In this document: positions 22,762-54,573 of the stretch, in pieces
Position numbering within the stretch: the first letter of the stretch is position 1
Layout: each line of letters starts with the position of its first letter
Origin: Cenarchaeum sp.
GTDB taxonomy: Archaea > Thermoproteota > Nitrososphaeria > Nitrososphaerales > Nitrosopumilaceae
Reading direction: 5' to 3'
NCBI GenBank assembly: GCA_965242695.1
Contig: CBDESU010000001.1
Coordinates: 1,920,001-1,984,000 of the forward strand
DNA: 64,000 nucleotides
Translations under genes and position numbers: made by a program
The notes under the pieces: generated by a model
What the model was told of the DNA's origin: nothing
Database searches by the model: none
What the model saw: only the letters and a program-made list of their open reading frames with translations

Positions 22762-25380
22762 TCAAACCCCAGTCGGGGACGGGTCGTGGACCCCCGTCCC
22801 CTGGTACTGCGGCAGGTCTAGCCGAGTCGTCTTGGCGCCATGAACCCGGACTTCCGGGTCATCGGACTTGCAGGGGGGCGGTACGGACGGCTTGATCGGC
22901 ACATGCCAGTTGCCAGGCCTTCGCCTTCGCCTCTGCGGGGTGCCGCATCGCCGCATGCTCGGCGGTGGAGGCTTCGGAGGGTGCCGCAGCCTGGCGGGTG
23001 CAGGACGCGGCGCACGCAGCAATCGCGGCATCGACCGGCGGCTGTCGGCGCGGAGGCGGATCGATGGAGCTGCCTGGGACGGAGCGGCCCTGCTCCAGTG
23101 GGCTTGCGATGCCGTTCGTGGCATTACTCGAGGGGCTTGCGGGGACTGCCGGGCATGCAGGGCGATTGCAACGGCCACGGCCTCTTGGATCCTCGCATCC
23201 GCGGCCGCGGCCTCCACGGCCCTGGCCGCCTCCGCGGCCGCCCTGATGCTCGCATCCGCGGCCGCGGCCTCCACGGCCCTGGCCGCCTCCGCGGCCGCCC
23301 TGATGCTCGCCTCCGCGGCCGCCCTGATGCTCGCATCCGCGGCCGCGGCCTCCACGGCCCTGGCCGCCTCCGCGGCCGCCCTGATGCTCGCATCCGCGGC
23401 CGCGGCCTCCACGGCCCTGGCCGCCTCCGCGGCCGCCCTGATGCTCGCATCCGCGGCCGCGGCCTCCACGGCCCTGGCCGCCTCCGCGGCCGCCCTGATG
23501 CTCGCATCCGCGGCCGCGGCCTCCACGGCCCTGGCCGCCTCCGCGGCCGCCCTGATGCTCGCATCCGCGGCCGCGGCATCCGCGGCCGCCCCTTTACCCC
23601 CGCTGCCGCCGCCCGCCCGGGCCGCCGCGATGCACTCGGGCGGCATCGGGCCGTCGAGGGGGCCCCTCCCAGGCCTTGCTGGCTTCCCGGCGCCACCCCA
23701 CCGGTTCGGCGCGACCTGCCCGACCTTGAATATGTCGGCCGGGTCGGCGCCGCGGGCGAGCGCGACGAACGCCTCGTCGAGCGGAATGCCCTGCTTGTCG
23801 CACGTGAGTATGAACGAGAGTATGACCGAGAACACCCTTGCCCCCTCGACGGTGCGGAGCTGGTAGCGCACGTTGCGCTGCGCGACGGGCACGCGCCGCA
23901 CGTCGCTCTCGCCGGGGTTGTTCGTCGGCGGCATGTCCTTGAACATCAGGAACGTGACCAAGTTCTTGGCCGCGTTCTCTATCTCGACGCGCGACGGGTG
24001 GCCCTTTGGCAGGCGCCCCGCTATGGCCAGCGCCCTCTGGACTATGGAGTCGCGCTCCTCCTCGGGCGCCGTGTCCATCCCGCTTACGCGCTCGTACAGG
24101 GAGCAGAACTCGTGGTACGCCAACCTGACGGCGGGATCGTCGCTCACGATGGCGGCCTTCTTGAAGTTGTTGATGACATGGCGCCAGCACCGCTGGATCT
24201 CGCCGAGGATGATCTCGTACACCTTGTAGCCGTCGACGACGCCTGCCAGCTGGCGCGCGAACGCAAACTCCTCGTCGAATATGCCCTTGCCGCGCGAGGG
24301 GCGCGCCACGACCATGGCCGCGCACGCCACCGTGAGCAGCCACAGGTAGCCCTGCCTGCCGAACATGCGCATCGTCGTCTCGTCAAAGTGGCCCCATCCC
24401 GTGGACGTGAGCAGCCTTTCAAGGTGCTTCATGAACGGCTCGAGGATGCGCGCGGCCGCCCTGCGCCCGTTCCACAGCGCCGAGGCGCACGCCGACGTCC
24501 CGAGCAGGCTCTCCAGGTAGCGCGACAGCTTGCGGTCCGTCGCGGCAAGCGCGTACAGGACGAGCATCTTTGAGAGCATGACGGGGCCGAACCAGGTGCC
24601 CTTCAGGTCCGGCGCGTCCGGCGCGCGCGACCACTCGTGGCACTTTGAGCACCACAACCTGCAGACGATCAGCTGCCACACGTGGACGCGCCCGTCGTCC
24701 TCGCCGATCTCGACGAACGTCTTCGACTCGGGCTGCTTGGCCTGGTGGGCGTACGTGGCGCGGCCGCAGTGCAGGCACTCGAAGATGGGGTAGCGGACGA
24801 CCTTTTCGGGCTTTAGGCGGTGCGAGGCGCCGGGGTGGCCCATGGGAGGGCCCAGCGCCGCATCGGGCCTGGGGCGCCCGCACGACTCTGCCTGCTCCCT
24901 GTCGAACGCCTTGGCCAGCGGGTTGTACAGGGACGGCATGCCGCGCCGGCTGTTGGGCGTCTCGTAGTACTCGAGCCTCTTCTTGAGCTTGCGCACCAGC
25001 GCCTCCAGCTCGGCCAGCTTGGCAAGGTCCTTGGGGTTGTGGTTGCCCTTTATGGCGTCGATCTGCCACTTGATCGCGTCGAGATCCCGCGACATGTCGT
25101 CTGCCGTGCGCAGGTGCTCGGCGCCGGCCTTCGAGATCTCGACGGCCATCTCCATGAACCTGCCTGCATCTTCCGTCCTGGCAATGTCCGCCCGGACCTT
25201 GTAGTCCTCAAACTCTGCCTTGAGCCTGTGGACCAGGCGGATCAGACTTGCGATCTCGGCGCGCAGCAGGGCCTTTTCCCTCCCATGCGCATCCGGCTCG
25301 AGCCGTATCCGGGTGACGGCAGGGCAGCAGGCGCACATGACGTCTATGCTCCTCCCGCCGTCCTTGTCGACATGTGGCAC
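22762..25380 (-). CDS. IS66-family DDE transposase with Ala-rich repeat C-terminal extension
   Basis: Coiled coil, GHPG, CLHC...CSKC zinc finger, HFDET, WL, VDGYKVY, QRCWRH, PTNNPGESDVR; start uncertain (GTG 25380). Confidence 0.9.
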   Translation of the reverse strand: MPHVDKDGGRSIDVMCACCPAVTRIRLEPDAHGREKALLRAEIASLIRLVHRLKAEFEDYKVRADIARTEDAGRFMEMAVEISKAGAEHLRTADDMSRDLDAIKWQIDAIKGNHNPKDLAKLAELEALVRKLKKRLEYYETPNSRRGMPSLYNPLAKAFDREQAESCGRPRPDAALGPPMGHPGASHRLKPEKVVRYPIFECLHCGRATYAHQAKQPESKTFVEIGEDDGRVHVWQLIVCRLWCSKCHEWSRAPDAPDLKGTWFGPVMLSKMLVLYALAATDRKLSRYLESLLGTSACASALWNGRRAAARILEPFMKHLERLLTSTGWGHFDETTMRMFGRQGYLWLLTVACAAMVVARPSRGKGIFDEEFAFARQLAGVVDGYKVYEIILGEIQRCWRHVINNFKKAAIVSDDPAVRLAYHEFCSLYERVSGMDTAPEEERDSIVQRALAIAGRLPKGHPSRVEIENAAKNLVTFLMFKDMPPTNNPGESDVRRVPVAQRNVRYQLRTVEGARVFSVILSFILTCDKQGIPLDEAFVALARGADPADIFKVGQVAPNRWGGAGKPARPGRGPLDGPMPPECIAAARAGGGSGGKGAAADAAAADASIRAAAEAARAVEAAAADASIRAAAEAARAVEAAAADASIRAAAEAARAVEAAAADASIRAAAEAARAVEAAAADASIRAAAEASIRAAAEAARAVEAAAADASIRAAAEAARAVEAAAADARIQEAVAVAIALHARQSPQAPRVMPRTASQAHWSRAAPSQAAPSIRLRADSRRSMPRLLRAPRPAPARLRHPPKPPPPSMRRCGTPQRRRRRPGNWHVPIKPSVPPPCKSDDPEVRVHGAKTTRLDLPQYQGTGVHDPSPTGV
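23193..23590. repeat. 57-bp coding tandem repeat (ADASIRAAAEAARAVEAAA), about 6 copies plus a short variant
   Basis: Read directly in DNA and protein. Confidence 0.95.
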
Positions 25381-25783
25381 GCCCGCCTCTCTCCCCCTCT
25401 CGACCCGTCCGGCCGCGCTCCGCTTATCATCTGCCGTGTAAACAATTCTTAACAATCTTGTAAAAAACCTGTGACTTGCCTTCCCGGGAGGCGCCGCCGA
25501 GGGCGGCCGCGCGCGGCCACATGGCCGCCGCCGTGCGCGGCTCCTGCCGGCAGCAGCGGCAGCAGGCTCAAGAACGCCGGCTCGGGGGCCGCGCGGCCAC
25601 ATGGCCGCCGTCACGCGGCCTCAAGATGCCGGCGGAACGGGCCATGCCCTGGCATGCGCACTAGGCAGAGGGGCGGCGGCACGCCTAGGGAGGGGCATGC
25701 GGATGGGGGGGACCTGAGCTCATGCGCGATTCCTAGCGCGCCAGGCGGGAACGGTTAAAATACTACCGCGGGATTTGTAGGGC

Positions 25784-27421: not shown

Positions 27422-28075
27422 TTGCTCAACGTCGGAGTGCTCGTCTCGGGCAGGGGCTCGAACATGGTCGCCATAGCAAGGGCCCTGAAGAGGCCGGGCG
27501 CGCCGGCTAGGTGCGCCGTCGTCGTCTCTGACAGGCCGGGCGCGCCTGGGCTTGCCGCCGCCGAGCGCCTCGGCGTGCCGGCGGTCGCCGTCGACGCCTC
27601 GCCGTACAGGGGCGCCGACAGGTGGGAGCACGACAGGAGGGTGGCCGCGGTCCTGCGCAGGCACGGCGTCACCGGCAGGGGCGGGCTGGTGTGCCTTGCG
27701 GGGTACATGAGGATCGTCAGCCCGCGGTTCGTCCGCCGGTACAGGAACCGCATCATGAACATACACCCCGCCCTCCTGCCGGCGTTCCCCGGCCTTGACG
27801 CGCAGGGGCAGGCCGTCAGGTACGGCGCAAGGGTGTCTGGGTGCACGGTCCACTTTGTAGACGACGGCGTCGACACGGGCCCCGTCATACTGCAGTCTGC
27901 CGTGGCCGTCAGGGACGGCGACACGCGCGAGTCGCTTGCGGCGCGGATACTCAGGGCCGAGCACCGCGCGTACCCGAGGGCCGTAGAGATGTTCGCAAGG
28001 GGCATGCTGCGCGTGTCTGGCAAGAGGGTCGTCGTGTCAGGGAGCAGGGCAGGGTGGAAGGGGCAGGGCCGATAG
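27422..28075 (+). CDS. purN: Phosphoribosylglycinamide formyltransferase
   Basis: SGRGSN, LAGYMRI, NIHPALLPAFPG, GCTVHFVD..VDTGP. Confidence 0.97.
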   Translation: MLNVGVLVSGRGSNMVAIARALKRPGAPARCAVVVSDRPGAPGLAAAERLGVPAVAVDASPYRGADRWEHDRRVAAVLRRHGVTGRGGLVCLAGYMRIVSPRFVRRYRNRIMNIHPALLPAFPGLDAQGQAVRYGARVSGCTVHFVDDGVDTGPVILQSAVAVRDGDTRESLAARILRAEHRAYPRAVEMFARGMLRVSGKRVVVSGSRAGWKGQGR

Positions 28076-28368
28076 TGCCGCGGGCTGGGCGACGGCGGCG
28101 CCGGATCTTCCCGCACAAGCGGCGTGGCCCCTGCTGGTGACTGAACTTTTTTGTAGAAGTTTACCAATGGAAGCCGCGCCTTATAGTGCGCTCGACTCCG
28201 ACACGGAAGATGCACGACCTATCCCAGCTCGGAGACTAGGCGCATACTTGGACCCGTCTACATATCGTCATGCTCGGGATGGTCCCTCGACTAGTTCTAG
28301 AGCTATGTAAACACAACTTATAATAAACCTATGGATTAAGCAACAAAAAAATTAATTAAGTGTCATTT

Positions 28369-31236
28369 TCAAATTTTAGTACTTGCGATGTTATTGAAAC
28401 ACTTCTTGCATAAAAATTGTGGCGTATCTATACCATTTATATTTTGAAATCCAAACACATCTTCAATTTCTTGTCGTGAAGCGGCAACAACATCACAACG
28501 CCGACATTTTGTATATACACGTGCACTAATATTTGATGTAACATGTTTGTCAATTATAGTTCGGACATCCGAAGGGTGAAACGCAACATCCCAAACCCAT
28601 GTACCATAATTACCATTATCATTAACAGCTGCTACCCAATCATCAAGGGAACGGCGTTTTTGTTTATTTTGATCATCATCCTTACCTTTTACCTCCAACA
28701 CCAGATTAACACTGTTTTGTAGACGAATTAAAAAGTCTGGATAATAATCGTGAAGAACGCCTCGATATCGATATTGGATAGAGAATCCAATTTTAGAGTT
28801 CTTAGCCCACGAGACCACCCTCTCATTCTGGTCAAGCTCCCTACCAGTCGCCATCTCCCATGTTGAGTCATAGACGGCTAAGTTAATGTGAGACTTTACA
28901 GTGCGCTCAGTCGGCTTCTTGGTGTACCATGGGCGCATGTCGGATGTAGATGCAATTGGCTTACTTCGGCTTAATACAATCTTACGTACATCAGTGTTTT
29001 CACTTCTAATGAATTTGCATATATGAGACACTACTTTATTCATATTAAATAAAATAGTCATTTTAACACGAAGGTCGTCATTCTGCACATCCGTAACATA
29101 TATGTAATTCGAATTTATAAATCCTTCTACAATTTTTACAACTTGGGCAAAAAGGCTCGACGGAGATCCATGCCAGCCAGATGAGATCTCATCATAAGCC
29201 TCGGCGGCGGCCCGAAATACTATCTGTTGAAGCCGTATTTTTTTATCTATTTCACGTAGGTCGATGTTAGACATCTTGCTTAAATCAGGCTTTCCAGATA
29301 TAACTTCTGCCAACCCTACTGCAGTAGCTACGCCTTCGCTTTTAAGATCAAGTTGTTCAACGGATTTCCAGTCAATCGATAGGTTAGATGTAAACGATGT
29401 GTGAATTTGCACTATGTTTGGCCATGAAATTCTATGTTTGATTTTCACAGGATCAGGCTCTATCAGAGTAGTCGGTGGCGGAGGCGGCGGCTGACCTTCG
29501 CCATCTTCATGAGGAAGAAAAGTAAATGGAACACCGAATACATTGACATATTCGGGCTCAAACAAGTTTGTGTCGGAGTTTATTTCATATGATGTTCGAC
29601 GTAGCCCCCTCCCAACTACTTGTTCACATAGGAGCTGGCTAGTAAAAGCTCGCAATCCCATTATGTGAGTTACATTCCTGGCATCCCAACCTTCTGAGAG
29701 CATCTGGACTGCCACTACGTTTCGAATTTGTGCGCCCGGTTGTCCATTTTTACCGACAGTACCCGCAATATCTCTCAAAGAATAACCGTTCTGTTTTCCA
29801 GCACCTGTTTTTATACTGCCAGATTCCTCTTTTTCGATCTGTGCAGAATCTATGTGTAATAAATGATCGGGGTCACATAGATCCGTAATTTCAAACCTTC
29901 TTTTTTCAAATAAGTGTGCTACGCGTGCAGCAGTTTCGGTTCTGTTGCAAACGGTTATCATAACAGGAGGTATCAACGATCCACGCTTTTCCCATGTTTT
30001 AAACGCTTCTAGCCAATCACGTCCTAATAACAAGTACGCATTATGAACCAATTCTGGTAACGGTACATGGGGTTTTACTTTTTTGTTAAGATCTTGTTTT
30101 ACTTCATCATCCATGTATATATGGTAAAATCTAGACCGGTAGTCACTACTAAACTGACCTGAATCATCTCGAATGGCTATTCGGGGTGTTTTTGTAAGAC
30201 CGGACTCTATAGCATCGTTGAGTGAAAAATCTGATACAATCCACTTGAACAGTGTCTCTTCCGTCACGTTTTTTCCGGATGGTATAAATGGCGTAGCAGA
30301 GAAGTCAAAACAGTGTATTATTTTTCTTGCAGTGTTAATTTTATCAAGACCATCCATCCAACGCTTGTCCTTCTCTAACGTAGATTTTGAGATTTTTTTG
30401 GCCTGATCGGTAGTTGCTCTGTATGCATGATGTGCTTCGTCATTTATGACTACAATGTTATTAGACATATGATCGAGTATTCTACGGGAAAATATTTCGT
30501 TACTTTCATTGCCTCGCTTTATGACACTTTTAGGCGAATCTACATCAGGCATAAACGTGTGCCAGTTGTGTATACTAATTTTGCCCACATATAGTTTTTG
30601 ACGTAGTGAATTGGGAACTATGTCAAACAAGTCATAAAAATTGCCCTCACTTGTTGGACGCAATACTTGAAGTCTTGATTTAACTGTAAGACCAGGCGCT
30701 ACGATAAGAATATGCTTAGAAAACCTTGTGTCATTAGGGTATGTGGTTTTATTGATTACTTGCCAAGCAATTAACATAGCCATCACAACCGTTTTGCCTG
30801 TACCGGTAGCCATTTTGCAACACATACGCTCAAACGTTCCTCCATCCAACGGAATTTTAACCCCGCGTTTTTTTGCATCAGGTGCTTCCACCAGCCAAAT
30901 AAGCGTCTCTATGGATTCTAATTGACAAAAGAAGAGTTGATTTTCTCTAGCATTCTCATCATGCCAAAAATTTAATAGTTGTCTTGTCATGTCAGTAACA
31001 TATGGATAACCAGATGCTCTCCACGCATCGACTTTTTCACGTATCAGGTTGACCAGATCAAGCTCTATGAACTCACCAGGATCGTCAAATGACTTGCTAC
31101 TTTGTGACGCTTTCAAGAAGCCGGCAGGTCGCCTTCCAGTGACTTTCTTAAATTTTTGCTGGGAACGATCATACCGCCAGTAGTGCGTCGGCATTTTGTA
31201 GGGATTACAAATTATGAGATTTTTTATTTTAAGCAT
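28369..31236 (-). CDS. res: Type III restriction enzyme Res subunit (SF2 helicase plus PD-(D/E)xK nuclease)
   Basis: KMATGTGKT, DEAHH, SAT, LSEGWD, EQVVGRGLR, YYPDF...LEVKG; ATG overlaps the mod stop. Confidence 0.95.
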   Translation of the reverse strand: MLKIKNLIICNPYKMPTHYWRYDRSQQKFKKVTGRRPAGFLKASQSSKSFDDPGEFIELDLVNLIREKVDAWRASGYPYVTDMTRQLLNFWHDENARENQLFFCQLESIETLIWLVEAPDAKKRGVKIPLDGGTFERMCCKMATGTGKTVVMAMLIAWQVINKTTYPNDTRFSKHILIVAPGLTVKSRLQVLRPTSEGNFYDLFDIVPNSLRQKLYVGKISIHNWHTFMPDVDSPKSVIKRGNESNEIFSRRILDHMSNNIVVINDEAHHAYRATTDQAKKISKSTLEKDKRWMDGLDKINTARKIIHCFDFSATPFIPSGKNVTEETLFKWIVSDFSLNDAIESGLTKTPRIAIRDDSGQFSSDYRSRFYHIYMDDEVKQDLNKKVKPHVPLPELVHNAYLLLGRDWLEAFKTWEKRGSLIPPVMITVCNRTETAARVAHLFEKRRFEITDLCDPDHLLHIDSAQIEKEESGSIKTGAGKQNGYSLRDIAGTVGKNGQPGAQIRNVVAVQMLSEGWDARNVTHIMGLRAFTSQLLCEQVVGRGLRRTSYEINSDTNLFEPEYVNVFGVPFTFLPHEDGEGQPPPPPPTTLIEPDPVKIKHRISWPNIVQIHTSFTSNLSIDWKSVEQLDLKSEGVATAVGLAEVISGKPDLSKMSNIDLREIDKKIRLQQIVFRAAAEAYDEISSGWHGSPSSLFAQVVKIVEGFINSNYIYVTDVQNDDLRVKMTILFNMNKVVSHICKFIRSENTDVRKIVLSRSKPIASTSDMRPWYTKKPTERTVKSHINLAVYDSTWEMATGRELDQNERVVSWAKNSKIGFSIQYRYRGVLHDYYPDFLIRLQNSVNLVLEVKGKDDDQNKQKRRSLDDWVAAVNDNGNYGTWVWDVAFHPSDVRTIIDKHVTSNISARVYTKCRRCDVVAASRQEIEDVFGFQNINGIDTPQFLCKKCFNNIASTKI

Positions 31237-33850
31237 TGTCAACCAACTCTATAATTTTCATGGACTCTATTCCACGATCATCAATAATTTTTACTGCGGC
31301 CCTCCTATTTGATCGCGTCTTAAATGGTATTGATACAGTTCCACGATATTTTTCTAGTAAATCACAATCTATTTGTGCGTTTAGCGTTTTGGCCAGTTGA
31401 CTCCATTTGCCAATATCTTTATCCATTGGAAAAAAGATCTGTCCCGGATAGAGACTCCTGCCATCATAGTCTTCATCTAACATCCACATAGCGATTTGAG
31501 ATGTATTGCCCGATTTAATATCTTTTGTCCGTGTATCGTAATAATCAAACCCATGCAACGTAACTACGTTTAAACCATCATTAGTAGTTTGGACACTAAC
31601 ATCAGGTTGTCCCACCAGCCAGAACGAATCATTGGTTGATCGTTTTTTTCTTAAATCGCCGGTTAGTAGATCTTTGTTTATTTCAACTTTAAGAATGGTC
31701 ATTTTTGGCCAATTCGTTTCATCTATGTCTTTAGCAGCTTCAGGATCAAACTGCATAGCGGCAAATATAATTACATCGGGTTTTGGTACTAGCATACGAG
31801 CCTCTTCTAGTGCTAGCTCAACTTGTCGTGGTTCTAAAGGTGCGTGTACCGGTCCAAAGGAGATTAATGCGGTCCTATGATCATTCGTAATTTCGGCCCA
31901 TGCGTGTATCCACCGTGTCGCTGCATGTGTATCAATCCTCGTAAACTCCAACTTTTGCCCACCTTTACCACGTATTCCCGTCTTCAATAGCTCGTCGCGC
32001 CACTCTTGTTGGTACGTGCCGATATCATCCACAGGGTTTGTCCATGGTTGTGATGCCGATTTATCAAACAACGCATCAATGGATCTAGCTACAGGAGATG
32101 GAACGGATTCAATTGTAAATGGTCCCGATATCCGGCTTTTTGTGTTATCAACATCAGGATTATCGTAGAGGATTTCCACATCTGGTTTCGAATCATTAGC
32201 CAAAGATCGTAATGTGATGTGCGACGCCTCCTTGTATTTGAAGCCAAAACTAATTTGGCCATCTTGTGATACTTCCCCCCCCCCCCCCCCCCCCCCGTCT
32301 ACCTCATGTGCCAGAACGTAGTAGTCATAAAAGGCAGTCATCAATCGCTTTCTTGCCACTGCGATAGCTATCCGCGATGTGTCACAAGTGATCCACCGTC
32401 GACCCCACTTTTCAGCAACATATGCGGTAGTTCCAGAACCGCATGTGGGATCTAGCACAAGATCTCCTGGATCACTAGTCATCAATATGCACCTTTCAAT
32501 AACTTTAGGGTTTGTGCGAACAACATATAATTTTTCGCTAACAAATCCCGGTATGCTTACATCGTCCCATACGTTATTCAGGGCCAGATAGGGAAAGTCT
32601 GACAAATACCTGACGTAACACAGGGTATTCCCAGTCACAATGAGTCTCTTTTTCTTTGCCAAGTTATTCATGCCTTCCAAATTGGTCTTCCAACCTCCGG
32701 ATCCCGGATAAAATTTTTTGTGATCATACTCAAATTCATAGGTAGTGCTTTTACTGGGAGTTTGCGATGTAAGATTATCAGCATTAAATACTTTAAGATT
32801 TTTGTAGGTGTGTGGATCTTGTTTTTCGTAATTTGACAATCTTCTTCGGTTACCCTCACGATCTTCAACAAAATTATATACAGCTAAACCTCTTCCTTTT
32901 ATTTTTTCTAAATACAGCTGTCTATATTTTACCTGTTTTTTGTTTTTGGCATACCAAATTATGTAGTCATTAACAGAATCTAACAGCCCAGCGCCTTTAG
33001 CCAATGTTTTACTGAAGACAATTATCCCGCAAAAATTTTTATTGCCAAAAACTTCATCCATTACTTCTCTAACATGGTGTAAATTTTCGTTGGAAATCTG
33101 TACGAACACACTTCCGTTATCTGTAAGTAATTTCTTAGCTAAGAATAATCGATCTCTCAAATATGACAAATATGAATGTACACCAAGCTCCCACGTATCT
33201 CGAAACGCCTTGATCATTTCTGGCTCTTGTGTTAGATCCTCATCTTTACCATCTTTAGCTGTTTTTTTACTGACAAATGGTTGAAAATTGGAACCATATT
33301 TGATCCCATATGGCGGATCTATGTATATAGTCTGCACATTGGCTTCCATGCCCTCTTTCTCAAGCAGTGAGTTCATAACCAAAAGAGAATCACCTGCAAT
33401 TAATCTGTTAGACCAATCTTGATCATGCCTATAAAAGTCGATCGCTTTTCGTAATGGTAGATTATTCTCGGGTTTTTCAAAATGAGGGAAAAGTATTTGT
33501 TGTGACATATGTTCTATTTTAAGTACTTTTTCAAAAATAGTAGCAGGGTCTATCCGCTCGTGAACATGAAGTGACACAGTGTCTACATCAAACTCGTGGT
33601 TTTTGCGTTTACCAGACCATGACAGGTAGGGGTCGATTCGGGGGTCATGAACGTACTTCTTACTCGGTTCATCAGGATCCGTCCCAGGTGTGACTAGACC
33701 CGCCGGCGGGTTGTTACGTCTTTTTTCTCCACCGTGAGTGTATTGTTCAACCGACTTGTCATGCTTGGTTTTAGCAGGCTGCCGACTCTTACTACTGGCG
33801 CGCTTGTTATTTGACGATGCGGTCGCATTTGTCCCTAGCCTGTCCAACAA
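31229..33850 (-). CDS. mod: Type III DNA methyltransferase Mod subunit (beta class, m6A)
   Basis: NRLIAGDSL, IYIDPPYG, AFRDTW, LVLDPTCGSGTTA, AVKIIDDRG. Confidence 0.95.
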   Translation of the reverse strand: MLDRLGTNATASSNNKRASSKSRQPAKTKHDKSVEQYTHGGEKRRNNPPAGLVTPGTDPDEPSKKYVHDPRIDPYLSWSGKRKNHEFDVDTVSLHVHERIDPATIFEKVLKIEHMSQQILFPHFEKPENNLPLRKAIDFYRHDQDWSNRLIAGDSLLVMNSLLEKEGMEANVQTIYIDPPYGIKYGSNFQPFVSKKTAKDGKDEDLTQEPEMIKAFRDTWELGVHSYLSYLRDRLFLAKKLLTDNGSVFVQISNENLHHVREVMDEVFGNKNFCGIIVFSKTLAKGAGLLDSVNDYIIWYAKNKKQVKYRQLYLEKIKGRGLAVYNFVEDREGNRRRLSNYEKQDPHTYKNLKVFNADNLTSQTPSKSTTYEFEYDHKKFYPGSGGWKTNLEGMNNLAKKKRLIVTGNTLCYVRYLSDFPYLALNNVWDDVSIPGFVSEKLYVVRTNPKVIERCILMTSDPGDLVLDPTCGSGTTAYVAEKWGRRWITCDTSRIAIAVARKRLMTAFYDYYVLAHEVDGGGGGGGEVSQDGQISFGFKYKEASHITLRSLANDSKPDVEILYDNPDVDNTKSRISGPFTIESVPSPVARSIDALFDKSASQPWTNPVDDIGTYQQEWRDELLKTGIRGKGGQKLEFTRIDTHAATRWIHAWAEITNDHRTALISFGPVHAPLEPRQVELALEEARMLVPKPDVIIFAAMQFDPEAAKDIDETNWPKMTILKVEINKDLLTGDLRKKRSTNDSFWLVGQPDVSVQTTNDGLNVVTLHGFDYYDTRTKDIKSGNTSQIAMWMLDEDYDGRSLYPGQIFFPMDKDIGKWSQLAKTLNAQIDCDLLEKYRGTVSIPFKTRSNRRAAVKIIDDRGIESMKIIELVDNA
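32275..32296 (-). repeat. G22 homopolymer in the mod coding strand (reads D-G7-E)
   Basis: 22 consecutive C on the plus strand. Confidence 0.95.
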
Positions 33851-33870
33851 AATCTGCGCTTTATGGCCTA

Positions 33871-33878
33871 TTTATAAA
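33871..33878 (-). promoter_or_regulatory. Archaeal TATA box for mod-res
   Basis: TTTATAAA 21-28 nt upstream of the mod TTG start. Confidence 0.6.
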
Positions 33879-34017
33879 GCATGGGAGAGGCCACCTCGGT
33901 TGTACACCCAACTTGTTCGAGGCACGCAGGATCGTATGATGCCACATTAATAAGTTCGTAGCGATCGTAGACAAAAGCGGTGTGTCTGACGGTACAGACA
34001 CCAACTGGCGGCCAGGC

Positions 34018-46174: not shown

Positions 46175-47212
46175 TCAGTGCACACGGCCCAGCCGCTGCC
46201 GGGCCGCCTCGCAATACTCGGGGTTCATGTCGATCCCGACGTAGGCCCTGCCCGCCTTTTTTGCGGCCACGCATGTGGTGCCGCTGCCGGCGTACGGGTC
46301 CAGGACGACGGCCCCCTCGGGCGCGAGCGTCCTGACGAGCAGTCCGACGACGGACTCGGGGTACACCGCGGGGTGGCCGCCCCACTGCAGGCTCTCGACG
46401 CTGCTCTCGACGACGTCGCGCCTGATCGGCCTGCCGGTCAGCCGGATGATCGTAAACCCCCTGTTCTCCATCTGCGACTGGCGCCCGCCTCCCTGGCCTC
46501 CAAAGGCCGGCGCGTGCACCCCACGTATCTTCATCCTAAAGCCGGCCGTCTTTCCGTCCCTCACCTCGCTGACCACGTCGCGGAGCGCGCCGAGCGCGCC
46601 CTCCTTTTCCGACTCGGAGAGGTCGGACGATGCGATGAGGCGCTCGTAGTGCCTCCCCATCGTGGCGCCCCCCTTTGCGGTCTGCCGGCGCACGAGCTGG
46701 TCGTCGTCGTGCGCGCCCGCGTCGTAGTAGTACTTTTGCGTCTTTGCAAAGTGGAAGAACGGCTCGGTGCTGGACACGAGGCGCCTCTGGAACTGCCGCG
46801 GCGTCGGGTTGGTCTTTACCCATGTGATGTTGTTCACGAGGATGGCGCCGGTCGCCTCCATGGCCCCGATCGCGAACCGGTGGGGTATGAGCCGCAGCGA
46901 GCCTCCCACGTACTTGTCGCCCATGTTGAACACGATGCTCCCCGTGTCCTTTGCTACCCTGATGCACTCGCGAAAGACGGCCGTTACGGAGTCGATGTAC
47001 TCTTCGACGGTGCCCTCCATGCCGGTCCCGGCCCGGCCGTCCCCGCCACGGCCGTACGAGCGCTGGTGGTAGTACGGGGGAGACGTGACCACCAGGTCGA
47101 CCGAGGAGTCGGGCATCTCCCCGAGCTGCTCGGCCGCATCCCCGCATACGATGCGGTTGAGGGCACGGATCGCCGCCGCGCCCTCGCTTCCGCCCGCGCC
47201 CGAAGCCGCCAT
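46175..47212 (-). CDS. Site-specific DNA methyltransferase, beta class (probably m4C)
   Basis: VVTSPPY, HPAVYP, LDPYAGSGTT. Confidence 0.93.
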   Translation of the reverse strand: MAASGAGGSEGAAAIRALNRIVCGDAAEQLGEMPDSSVDLVVTSPPYYHQRSYGRGGDGRAGTGMEGTVEEYIDSVTAVFRECIRVAKDTGSIVFNMGDKYVGGSLRLIPHRFAIGAMEATGAILVNNITWVKTNPTPRQFQRRLVSSTEPFFHFAKTQKYYYDAGAHDDDQLVRRQTAKGGATMGRHYERLIASSDLSESEKEGALGALRDVVSEVRDGKTAGFRMKIRGVHAPAFGGQGGGRQSQMENRGFTIIRLTGRPIRRDVVESSVESLQWGGHPAVYPESVVGLLVRTLAPEGAVVLDPYAGSGTTCVAAKKAGRAYVGIDMNPEYCEAARQRLGRVH

Positions 47213-47270
47213 GCCCGCCGGCCGCCATGCCCGCCGAATTAATGTTGCACGGCGGCGGCGGGATCCCCCG

Positions 47271-47957
47271 TCATATACGCCGCAGGACGCGCGACGAAAA
47301 GCGCGCCCTGTACAGGGCTGCGACGGCTAGCGCGCCTGCCGGCGGCGCCGATGCGTACAACCACATGTGGGCCATGTGCGACGGGTCGCCCGAGACGATC
47401 GCCGGCGCAAGCGACCGTATGGGGTTCATCGACGCGCCGGACATGCCGCCGAACAGCAGCACGTCGAGGGCGACGATGCCGCCGATGGCCGCCGCCGCGG
47501 CCCACGCGGCAAGGCCGCGCATGCTGACGACGGCGAGCACGACTCCCATGAGGAGGGCCGTGGCCGTCACCTCTACGGCAAAGTGCGCCCCCGGCCAGAG
47601 CGACGTGTCCGGCGAGTTGGCCCCTATCCCCGCATAGTCGCCCACAATGTGCAGCACGAACAGGCTGCCGAGGACGGCCCCGGCCGCCTGCGCCCCTGCG
47701 TACAGTGGGGCCATCCTGGCGCGCAGGTGCCCCGTCAGGACAAACGCCGCCGTCACGGCGGGGTTGAAGTGGGCCATAGAGTACCGCCCGAATATCCACA
47801 CCACGGCGGCAAGGCCTGCAAGGTGCATGGCGGCAATGAACGGCACGCCGAGCCAGTACCCCAGACGGCCGTCAAGTGCGATCGAACCCGTGGCGGCCGC
47901 TACGAGCCCGAACGTGCCGGCCGCCTCTGCCACCGCTATGCGCGCGGCGCCGCTCAT
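47271..47957 (-). CDS. Aquaporin (MIP family)
   Basis: AHFNPAVT and GASMNPIRS boxes. Confidence 0.93.
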   Translation of the reverse strand: MSGAARIAVAEAAGTFGLVAAATGSIALDGRLGYWLGVPFIAAMHLAGLAAVVWIFGRYSMAHFNPAVTAAFVLTGHLRARMAPLYAGAQAAGAVLGSLFVLHIVGDYAGIGANSPDTSLWPGAHFAVEVTATALLMGVVLAVVSMRGLAAWAAAAAIGGIVALDVLLFGGMSGASMNPIRSLAPAIVSGDPSHMAHMWLYASAPPAGALAVAALYRARFSSRVLRRI

Positions 47958-54457: not shown

Positions 54458-54573
54458 TGGTGGACCGGATGGGATTTGAACCCATGACCCTTGCGGGACT
54501 GCCGCCGGCGCCTGCGCCGCGGCCGCCCTTACGCAGTGTGAGTGCGTCATCCTAGCCGCTAGACAACCGGTCC
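54458..54573 (-). tRNA. tRNA-Val(CAC) with 40-nt intron at non-canonical position 44/45 (intron 54490-54529); CCA encoded
   Basis: Acceptor GGACCGG/CCGGTCC, anticodon arm ACGCA-CT CAC AC-TGCGT, T arm ATGGG-TTCAAAT-CCCAT; bulge-helix-bulge splicing restores AGGUC. Confidence 0.92.

Follow-up and report, generated by a model that had tools for sequence, protein, structure and literature searches.

The stretch of DNA analyzed here, a 64,000-nucleotide window on the genome of Cenarchaeum sp. (GenBank assembly GCA_965242695.1, contig CBDESU010000001.1, positions 1,920,001 to 1,984,000; positions below are those of the window unless a contig or locus is named), contains a mod gene for a Type III-like DNA methyltransferase whose reading frame passes through 22 consecutive G residues (G22). 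In silico criteria make this gene a candidate for an archaeal Type III-like mod with phase variation, and we lean toward the view that the tract is a slippage switch which turns at least restriction on and off. Under the mechanism that we propose, G22 would be a hypermutable simple-sequence repeat inserted in a surface loop of a Type III-like Mod gained by horizontal transfer. At tract lengths of 3n + 1 (19, 22, or 25 bases), the full Mod protein of 873 amino acids (aa) would be made and ribosomes would reach the overlapping start of the res gene; other lengths, arising through slipped-strand mispairing in replication, would end Mod at 532 to 587 aa, about 0.8 to 1 kb before res. The truncation would remove the conserved C-terminal third of Mod, and restriction would be off. 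We infer that the tract varies in length within populations, that restriction switches off in this manner, and that the arrangement is under selection; in that case, the tract would belong to a group of G/C-run contingency loci in the defense and surface-protein genes of this lineage.

The tract reads as C22 on the plus strand at positions 32275 to 32296, that is, as G22 on the coding (minus) strand of mod. The mod open reading frame (ORF; 31229..33850, minus strand) runs through it in frame and without a stop codon, as ...AHEVD-GGGGGGG-EVSQDG..., to give a translation of 873 aa (here referred to as P0001). The tract starts at mod nucleotide 1555, in codon 519, and encodes Gly519 to Gly525 plus the first base of Glu526. 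An initial annotation of this DNA had described 22 consecutive G residues in frame, placed 3' of both catalytic motifs and followed by about 350 codons, and these statements agree with the sequence and its translation: the motifs DPPY and DPTCGSGTT occupy residues 178 to 181 and 467 to 475, the tract begins at codon 519, and 348 codons follow. The same annotation had regarded the tract as something singular in an AT-rich gene, and in this respect it has to be revised, as mod lies in a 41% GC island within a 68% GC genome and the tract is 1 of 223 runs.

A G12 pattern matched the 64-kb window at 11 overlapping positions, all within G22, where 0.01 matches were expected (100 shuffles), and about 1e-11 G22 runs would be expected given a G frequency of 0.222 across the remainder of mod. 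At 22 bases, the run also lies above the mononucleotide cutoff of at least nine bases by which phase-variable mod genes were recognized in silico, according to the available text of PMC5909438. All seven glycine codons of the tract are GGG, a codon that accounts for 8 of the 49 glycine codons elsewhere in mod and 4 of the 48 in res. Because GGG is only a minor glycine codon in the rest of mod, the tract is a DNA homopolymer rather than a mixed-codon glycine linker. In a structural model of Mod, it falls within a low-confidence loop (residues 518 to 532) with a predicted local distance difference test score (pLDDT) of <50.

Homologues of this Mod, bacterial and archaeal, number 8,000 proteins at an E value of ≤1e-20. 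The initial annotation had asked whether they lack the glycine run, and nearly all of those aligned do: in an alignment of 60 sequences (59 homologues plus P0001), 57 of the 59 have no insertion at this site and one other is longer by 3 residues. In the nearest allele, represented by P0004 and P0124 of one cluster (82% identity), the insertion comprises 11 residues, DLGGGGEEESE, so that the glycine count differs between the two closest known alleles, with seven here and four there. Since 57 of the homologues are without the run and the nearest allele has only four glycines, the G22 run is, on the evidence of this alignment, a recent local insertion. P0001 retains every column that is invariant among the 60 sequences, on both sides of the tract; because all these columns are retained and Res matches its family model over the full length, mod is not decaying.

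Several lines of evidence identify the encoded protein. Mod matches Pfam N6_N4_Mtase (PF01555) with an E value of 7.4e-33 over residues 172 to 497 (profile positions 1 to 217 of 221). Motif IV (DPPY; 33308..33319, minus strand), with columns invariant in two family alignments, is followed by a long target-recognition insert and then by motif I (DPTCGSGTT; 32426..32452, minus strand), the S-adenosylmethionine-binding loop, the columns of which are likewise invariant in the alignments; this is the order that defines beta-class N6/N4 methyltransferases. The PADLOC model MTase_III (PDLC03632) scored 490.6 bits, compared with 125 bits for the best Type II model, and the top sequence matches in the PDB were a Helicobacter Mod (6k0w) and EcoP15I Mod. 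EcoP15I Mod (4zcf_A) was also the best Foldseek match of the 873-aa model (E value, 1e-19), and it aligned to residues 132 to 587 in VIA-align with a Z score of 23.7, a value with which several small beta-class enzymes tie (Z scores of 23 to 24). The length of 873 aa presupposes a TTG start at 33850. The public protein record (P0003) begins at Met115 and has 759 aa, and family-conserved residues 33 to 114 lie in frame upstream of that methionine; the annotated start is probably too short. A TATA-like sequence, TTTATAAATA (33869..33878, minus strand), is read 19 to 28 nucleotides (nt) upstream of the TTG and is a candidate archaeal promoter for a leaderless mod-res transcript.

The res gene (28369..31242, minus strand) encodes a 957-aa putative helicase-nuclease (P0002). 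It matches the NCBIfam family NF046055 (BPTD_3080 family restriction endonuclease) over its full length with 1,012.5 bits (cutoff, 800) and Pfam ResIII with 39.3 bits (cutoff, 22.5). A Walker A motif, GTGKT (30790-30804, minus strand), a DEAH motif (30427-30441, minus strand), and CxxC pairs at the C terminus were read in the translation, and a putative nuclease motif, PD...EVK (28681-28746, minus strand), was picked out by eye. The match to PADLOC REase_III is weak (38.6 bits), no sequence match was found in the PDB, and the name "BPTD_3080" did not occur in the literature searched. The mod gene lies directly 5' of res on the same strand, in the arrangement of one operon, and the res start overlaps the mod stop by 14 nt if counted from the res TTG or by 8 nt from an ATG at 31236. 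The initial description of a Type III-like mod with an overlapping res is therefore supported by the Pfam, PADLOC, NCBIfam NF046055, and Foldseek matches and by the 14-nt overlap, and the pair can be regarded as a putative Type III-like restriction-modification system. As judged from the junction, res seems to have no evident ribosome-binding site of its own and appears to be translationally coupled to mod.

When tract lengths from G18 to G26 were modelled, products of 872 to 874 aa resulted at G19, G22, and G25 only, and all other lengths gave 532 to 534 or 585 to 587 aa; the prediction of the initial annotation that a slip would truncate Mod is thus correct for every length in this range other than 3n + 1. 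The part lost upon a frameshift, residues 526 to 873 (31232..32275, minus strand; model pLDDT, 78.5), comprises a beta segment, a PD-(D/E)xK-like fold, and an Ig/FN3-like sandwich. The beta segment (approximately residues 535 to 587) is conserved and contains RISGPFTIE, which corresponds to the invariant RISGPFT.E. Structural alignments to RsrI, TTHA0409, EcoP15I Mod, the Helicobacter Mod, and Mbo45V Mod continue to residues 582 to 589, and those to M.BceJIV, MboIIA, M1.HpyAVI, and the PvuII methylase stop at residues 505 to 510 (all VIA-align). Because some methyltransferase alignments extend this far, the segment from 539 to 582 may belong to the methyltransferase domain. Residues ~609 to 740 pair with PD-(D/E)xK folds, namely, NucS (2vld_B; Z score of 10.3, root mean square deviation of 2.4 over 102 aa), AF1548 (1y88; Z score of 10.1), the nuclease domain of LlaBIII (4xqk; Z score of 8.7), and AspBHI, PaqCI, MspJI, and FokI (Z scores of 7.2 to 7.8), and residues ~747 to 873 pair with Ig/FN3-like beta-sandwiches (Z scores of 7 to 9). 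A Foldseek search of the C-terminal part against the PDB gave no match at an E value of ≤1e-3, and a canonical D...(D/E)xK catalytic motif could not be placed among its conserved columns.

The two activities of the system would be affected differently by such a truncation. The short Mod retains both catalytic motifs and the target-recognition insert while losing the beta segment and the nuclease-like and Ig-like domains, and methylation might survive for this reason. The phasevarion of the initial annotation, in which the methylome and a regulon would switch with the tract, is accordingly hypothetical. In Type III systems, Res relies on Mod to recognize DNA. Restriction should therefore be lost, both because of this dependence and because translation would end 0.8 to 1 kb before the res start.

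The tract does not stand alone in this genome, which contains 252 G/C runs of at least 9 bases and 223 of at least 10. In a pattern scan, runs of G12 or longer were present in 8 of 41 related genomes and absent from the other 33; overlapping matches numbered 384, 381, 286, 18, and 4 in all five genomes of the genus and 78, 19, and 2 in the three others. The runs follow a positional strand polarity. On contig 1 (C1), G on the plus strand dominates the first 1.0 Mb (64 versus 5 runs) and C dominates thereafter (70 versus 10), and on contig 2 (C2), C dominates to ~0.67 Mb (20 versus 3) and G beyond this point (45 versus 6); 199 of the 223 runs conform. The pattern resembles replichore polarity, and C1 and C2 may be arcs of a single replicon. 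A weak GC skew, opposite in sign to the polarity of the runs, is also present.

Ordinary genes are largely free of these runs. As sorted by a simple coding classifier, 3 of the 223 lie in frame in native genes, 4 lie at frame breaks, 26 on 5' sides, and 7 on 3' sides, and 183 received no coding call, compared with shares of 35%, 1%, 16%, and 17% in the same four classes, and 29% without a call, among 3,000 random positions; native coding DNA holds 3% of the runs and 36% of the random positions. Methyltransferase genes present a different picture. Among 41 methyltransferase-domain ORFs, which make up 2.4% of the genome (19 of 23 PF01555 rows, with three below the cutoff and one second piece of the same gene dropped, plus all 22 PF02384 rows), 11 have a run of at least 9 bases inside their stop-to-stop frame, where 6 would be expected if the 252 runs were evenly spread. 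The runs are thus ~12-fold rarer than chance in ordinary coding DNA and ~2-fold above the even expectation in methyltransferase ORFs.

Two groups of runs were examined by hand, those flanked by low-GC DNA and the seven that the classifier called intragenic, and the surrounding ORFs were identified by Pfam. Runs are in frame in an MmeI/Eco57I-like enzyme (C10, L012:3001-3010), in the first of two Type ISP enzymes (G11, L018:3001-3011), in the first of two N6_N4 methyltransferases (G14, L013:3001-3014), in a TPR protein (G10), and in an ORF of unknown family (G22). The frame is broken at the run in the second Type ISP enzyme (G13, L014:3001-3013, inside the helicase domain), in the second N6_N4 methyltransferase (G10, L021:3001-3010, between profile positions 36 and 40), in a DndD-like AAA_23 gene adjoining a PAPS-reductase-family gene (G12, L023:3001-3012), in an ORF of ~1,000 aa without a Pfam family (G13), and, according to the classifier, in a fragment of an insertion sequence (G10). 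A C11 run lies 33 nt upstream of an AAA_15/AAA_21 ATPase gene. In the sister species (G004), the DndD-like gene has a G18 run (L107:2087-2104) at the same place as the G12 run here, at 85% nucleotide identity, and its frame is broken in the same way; in both species, the two halves are open and conserved. As far as one orthologous pair can, this shows that run length changes over time. It is the only orthologous tract that could be compared, because no complete counterpart of three other tract-bearing defense genes (L014, L010, and L021) was found in the remaining 4 genomes of the genus; the L021 match in the sister species covers only the region upstream of the methyltransferase.

Relatives of mod itself also carry runs. 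Two paralogues are encoded in this genome, with 55% and 53% identity. One, at C1:2084112, carries C13 at a distance of 12 nt upstream of the earliest ATG in the body frame. In the second, at C1:192364 (C1:192352-194415; L026:2989-5049), a G13 run is followed by ~3.5 copies of a 24-nt tandem repeat (TATRTTRK); the ATG and the body are in different frames, and a TAG stands in frame at a position that is Gln in relatives (FAAM*FDPE). This copy is probably dead. A relative in another genome of the genus (G002) has a G13 run just after the ATG, in frame, and one in another genus (G015) has a C11 run with the ATG out of frame. We surveyed 80 loci of GTDB representative genomes encoding the closest members of the mod family, covering mod and 150 nt upstream, and found a G/C run of at least 9 bases at 2 loci, both of Nitrosopumilaceae, and A9 at 3 others. 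In this sample, G/C runs at mod are confined to this lineage. The comparative context, with runs in and out of frame at the 5' ends of related mod genes and further runs in other defense genes, favors a switch.

The host and the setting of the gene pair are of relevance here. The genome comprises 3.89 Mb in two contigs with 67 to 68% GC, is 96% complete, and encodes archaeal small- and large-subunit rRNAs and an archaeal AmoA (E value, 2e-118); relatives at the family level have genomes of 0.8 to 1.8 Mb. A symbiotic thaumarchaeon, as had been presumed from the sequence of the window, is borne out by the rRNAs, the AmoA, and the Cenarchaeum-type relatives, and the organism is of the ammonia-oxidizing, sponge-symbiont type. 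A haloarchaeal host, as the GC content of 68% might suggest, was rejected in view of the AmoA and the relatives. A low-GC island (28216..34017; 40 to 43% GC) holds only mod and res, in contrast to 56 to 74% GC in the rest of the window, and is flanked by a formyltransferase gene (27422-28075, plus strand) and an SUF Fe-S operon (from 34018, minus strand), both recognized by Pfam. No flanking direct repeats, tRNA gene, or integrase was found at its borders. The pair is foreign to this genome and was acquired horizontally. Neither the island nor two other low-GC defense genes tested were found in 4 other genomes of the genus, which is why we regard the island as recent and dispensable, and those two genes likewise. 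MutS domain V was not found in this 96%-complete genome, and the sole NucS match, at 23 bits, is weak; it is located in a low-GC island, beside a methyltransferase gene, and was not counted as a repair gene. Weak correction of slippage loops would fit a high instability of the runs.

A number of observations speak against a maintained switch. No length variant of the mod tract was seen. The region from 30800 to 33900 is represented in 5 public sequencing runs from 2 studies, the sequence being available as contigs; contigs of three of these (X1, X3, and X4) match both flanks of the tract with 0 differences and end at or inside the G run, and in a run of the second study (X5), mod is present only in pieces. 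The contig comparison skipped 32266 to 32306 and bears neither way on tract length, and a pattern search of a metagenome contig collection for both flanks separated by a gap of 10 to 40 gave 0 matches. No near-identical Mod of truncated or altered length was found in the protein collection either, where the best non-self match has 82% identity and the best shorter one 62%. The tract obeys the genome-wide polarity, as it is C on the plus strand in the C-biased part of contig 1, and such polarity fits a lineage-wide mutational process acting on any DNA. Furthermore, a single consensus assembly underlies the frame breaks seen in other genes, and these could represent dead genes or homopolymer miscalls; the break shared by the DndD-like genes of two species fits programmed slippage better than random switching. 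The simple coding classifier cannot call low-GC genes, and homology checks covered all but ~170 of the runs without a call. Finally, defense islands are dispensable, and relaxed selection alone could let runs persist in them.

The most serious rival to the switch is a mutational by-product, given that the tract belongs to 223 runs whose strand polarity extends over the whole genome. According to this explanation, the lineage expands G/C runs everywhere with a replication-linked polarity, and the run in mod is an unstable one in a tolerant loop, in frame by chance or through recent purifying selection, which would eventually kill the gene without ever having been a maintained switch. The conformity of 199 of the 223 runs of at least 10 bases, the mod tract included, is in line with this explanation, which would also account for the restriction of runs to 8 of 41 relatives, for a tract in a loop with a pLDDT of <50, for a paralogue (C1:192400) that looks dead with its run, out-of-frame start, and in-frame TAG, and for the failure to find the mod-res island, or the two other low-GC defense genes tested, in the remaining 4 genomes of the genus. 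It accounts less well for runs that are purged ~12-fold from ordinary coding DNA and yet exceed the even expectation ~2-fold in methyltransferase ORFs, for their recurrence at a 5' position of the same gene family in several genomes, and for a Mod and a Res that are fully intact on either side of a run expected to mutate very fast. We therefore consider it rather unlikely as a full account, although it deserves to be taken seriously.

Recoding is a different kind of explanation. Transcriptional slippage on long homopolymers is established in bacteria, and an RNA polymerase that slips on the G run would give each cell both a full-length Mod and a short, methyltransferase-only form, with out-of-frame genes elsewhere being partly rescued in the same way. 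The DndD-like gene, which has the same frame break at G12 here and at G18 in the sister species and keeps both halves open at 85% identity, speaks for recoding, as such conservation would not be expected of a long-dead gene, and long G runs might act as sites of slippage in transcription or translation; it is, however, a single orthologous pair, and the same phase would be shared by chance in ~1 of 3 cases. We regard recoding as improbable, and it can coexist with switching at the DNA level. That the run or its exact length is absent from the organism and stems from assembly or sequencing is very hard to believe, even though long homopolymers are difficult to call and no public contig examined bridges this one: with a length of 22, the 873-aa frame stays open and all the residues downstream that are invariant in the family are preserved, a glycine-run insertion occurs at the same site in the nearest independent allele, the polarity of the runs is ordered, one of them recurs at the orthologous site in the assembly of another species, and three further assemblies, same-genus or related, are equally run rich. 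We attach least credence of all to protein-level selection for a poly-glycine linker that joins the methyltransferase to the C-terminal domains. The position of the run in a flexible loop and the glycines in the nearest allele would be in keeping with it, but the seven GGG codons contrast with 8 of 49 elsewhere in mod, and 57 of 59 homologues function without the insertion. A conserved glycine linker is ruled out by the same two observations.

Beyond the switch in mod, it is conceivable, though we would not yet call it probable, that Cenarchaeum-type symbionts run an archaeal phasome, in which hundreds of replication-polarized G/C runs are excluded from ordinary genes and retained in restriction-modification, DNA modification, and giant surface-protein genes, with the mod tract being a switch that removes the restriction half of a Type III-like enzyme. 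If true, this would be the first multilocus simple-sequence-repeat contingency system in Archaea, found in a nonpathogenic symbiont, and a population would always be a mixture of defense and surface states. The subject would also bear on the balance that a symbiont strikes between phage defense and the uptake of foreign DNA and on how archaeal replication handles long G runs in a genome in which MutS was not found.

Several additional features were noted. In giant surface-protein genes, G runs occur at C1:135658/135762, 144382, and 150343/150446, and pairs of G runs precede ORFs of 2,130 and 2,800 aa at C1:266171/266272 and 828696/828806. A repeated 5' element lies before ORFs of 1,358 to 2,800 aa of this kind and combines a TATA-like TAAATAATAC with two G runs and, between these, a conserved stretch of 100 nt; it is present at C1:135658/135762, 150343/150446, 266171/266272, and 828696/828806. 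Three tandem units of 145 to 154 nt, each with a G run, are located at C1:65458-65768. Within the window, an ORF of 950 aa with an IS66-family transposase domain (22762-25614, minus strand) lies ~2.6 kb from the mod-res island, and a second N6_N4 DNA methyltransferase ORF (46175-47326, minus strand; PF01555, 147 bits) has native GC content and no long run. An Rfam tRNA match of 113 nt (54461-54573, minus strand; 50.8 bits) probably contains an intron; ARAGORN in bacterial mode reported none anywhere in the window.

In host-adapted bacteria, phase variation of restriction-modification systems through slippage is textbook knowledge. A described archaeal case was not found in the literature covered by our searches, subscription journals lying outside that coverage, and searches for Cenarchaeum with homopolymers and for ammonia-oxidizing archaea with phase variation returned nothing relevant. 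The available text of PMC5909438 reports repeats in 662 of the 3,805 Type III mod genes of REBASE and, for nine-base runs, cites switching at rates of 1.8 to 13.5e-3; the string "archae" occurs 0 times in its main text. In the accessible sections of a 2024 review of archaeal restriction-modification (PMC11033074), "phase-variable" appears only in the title of a Neisseria reference, and a study of short homopolymer statistics in 18 archaeal genomes (PMC2831843) treats neither long G runs nor restriction-modification genes in the portion available. A 2025 review (PMC11868660, available in part) names the distribution of phase variation across archaeal phylogenies as future work and asks whether multilocus phase-variable genomes are truly confined to pathogens. 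With G22 in mod and runs in about a dozen other defense genes and in giant surface-protein genes, both questions would become directly testable with reads and methylomes from sponge samples.

Compared with known systems, the gene described here shares with bacterial Type III mod genes that are phase variable, as presented in the available text of PMC5909438, a poly-G tract in the ORF of a beta-class Mod, a res gene downstream, a length that sets the frame, several tract-bearing methyltransferase genes per genome, and an association with a host. It differs in that the host is an archaeon, that the run comprises 22 bases, and that it is located after both catalytic motifs, at a domain joint, rather than near the 5' end; moreover, it is known from sequence alone. 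A mid-ORF poly-G tract at which a slip removes the downstream domains is also found in the Type IIG enzyme Cj0031 of Campylobacter jejuni, although, according to the sections of PMC4889913 that were accessible, this bacterial enzyme is a single chain and not a Mod/Res pair, and switching and its effect on the methylome were measured there. EcoP15I (4zcf) provides the best structural match of the Mod model, and in both systems Mod precedes Res, here a putative helicase-nuclease. In contrast to EcoP15I, which is not phase variable, the Mod studied here has ~290 additional C-terminal residues (the nuclease-like fold and the Ig-like domain) that do not align to EcoP15I Mod, and its Res belongs to the NF046055 family. 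Lastly, the poly-G phasomes of Campylobacter and Neisseria, as far as described in the available parts of PMC6321876 and PMC5084427, resemble this genome in their many G/C runs, in the concentration of these in restriction-modification and surface-protein genes, and in their mixed frame states, whereas the runs of the present genome are mostly intergenic, with a strand polarity that depends strongly on position, and the loci have been recognized by sequence analysis in an archaeal symbiont with 68% GC.

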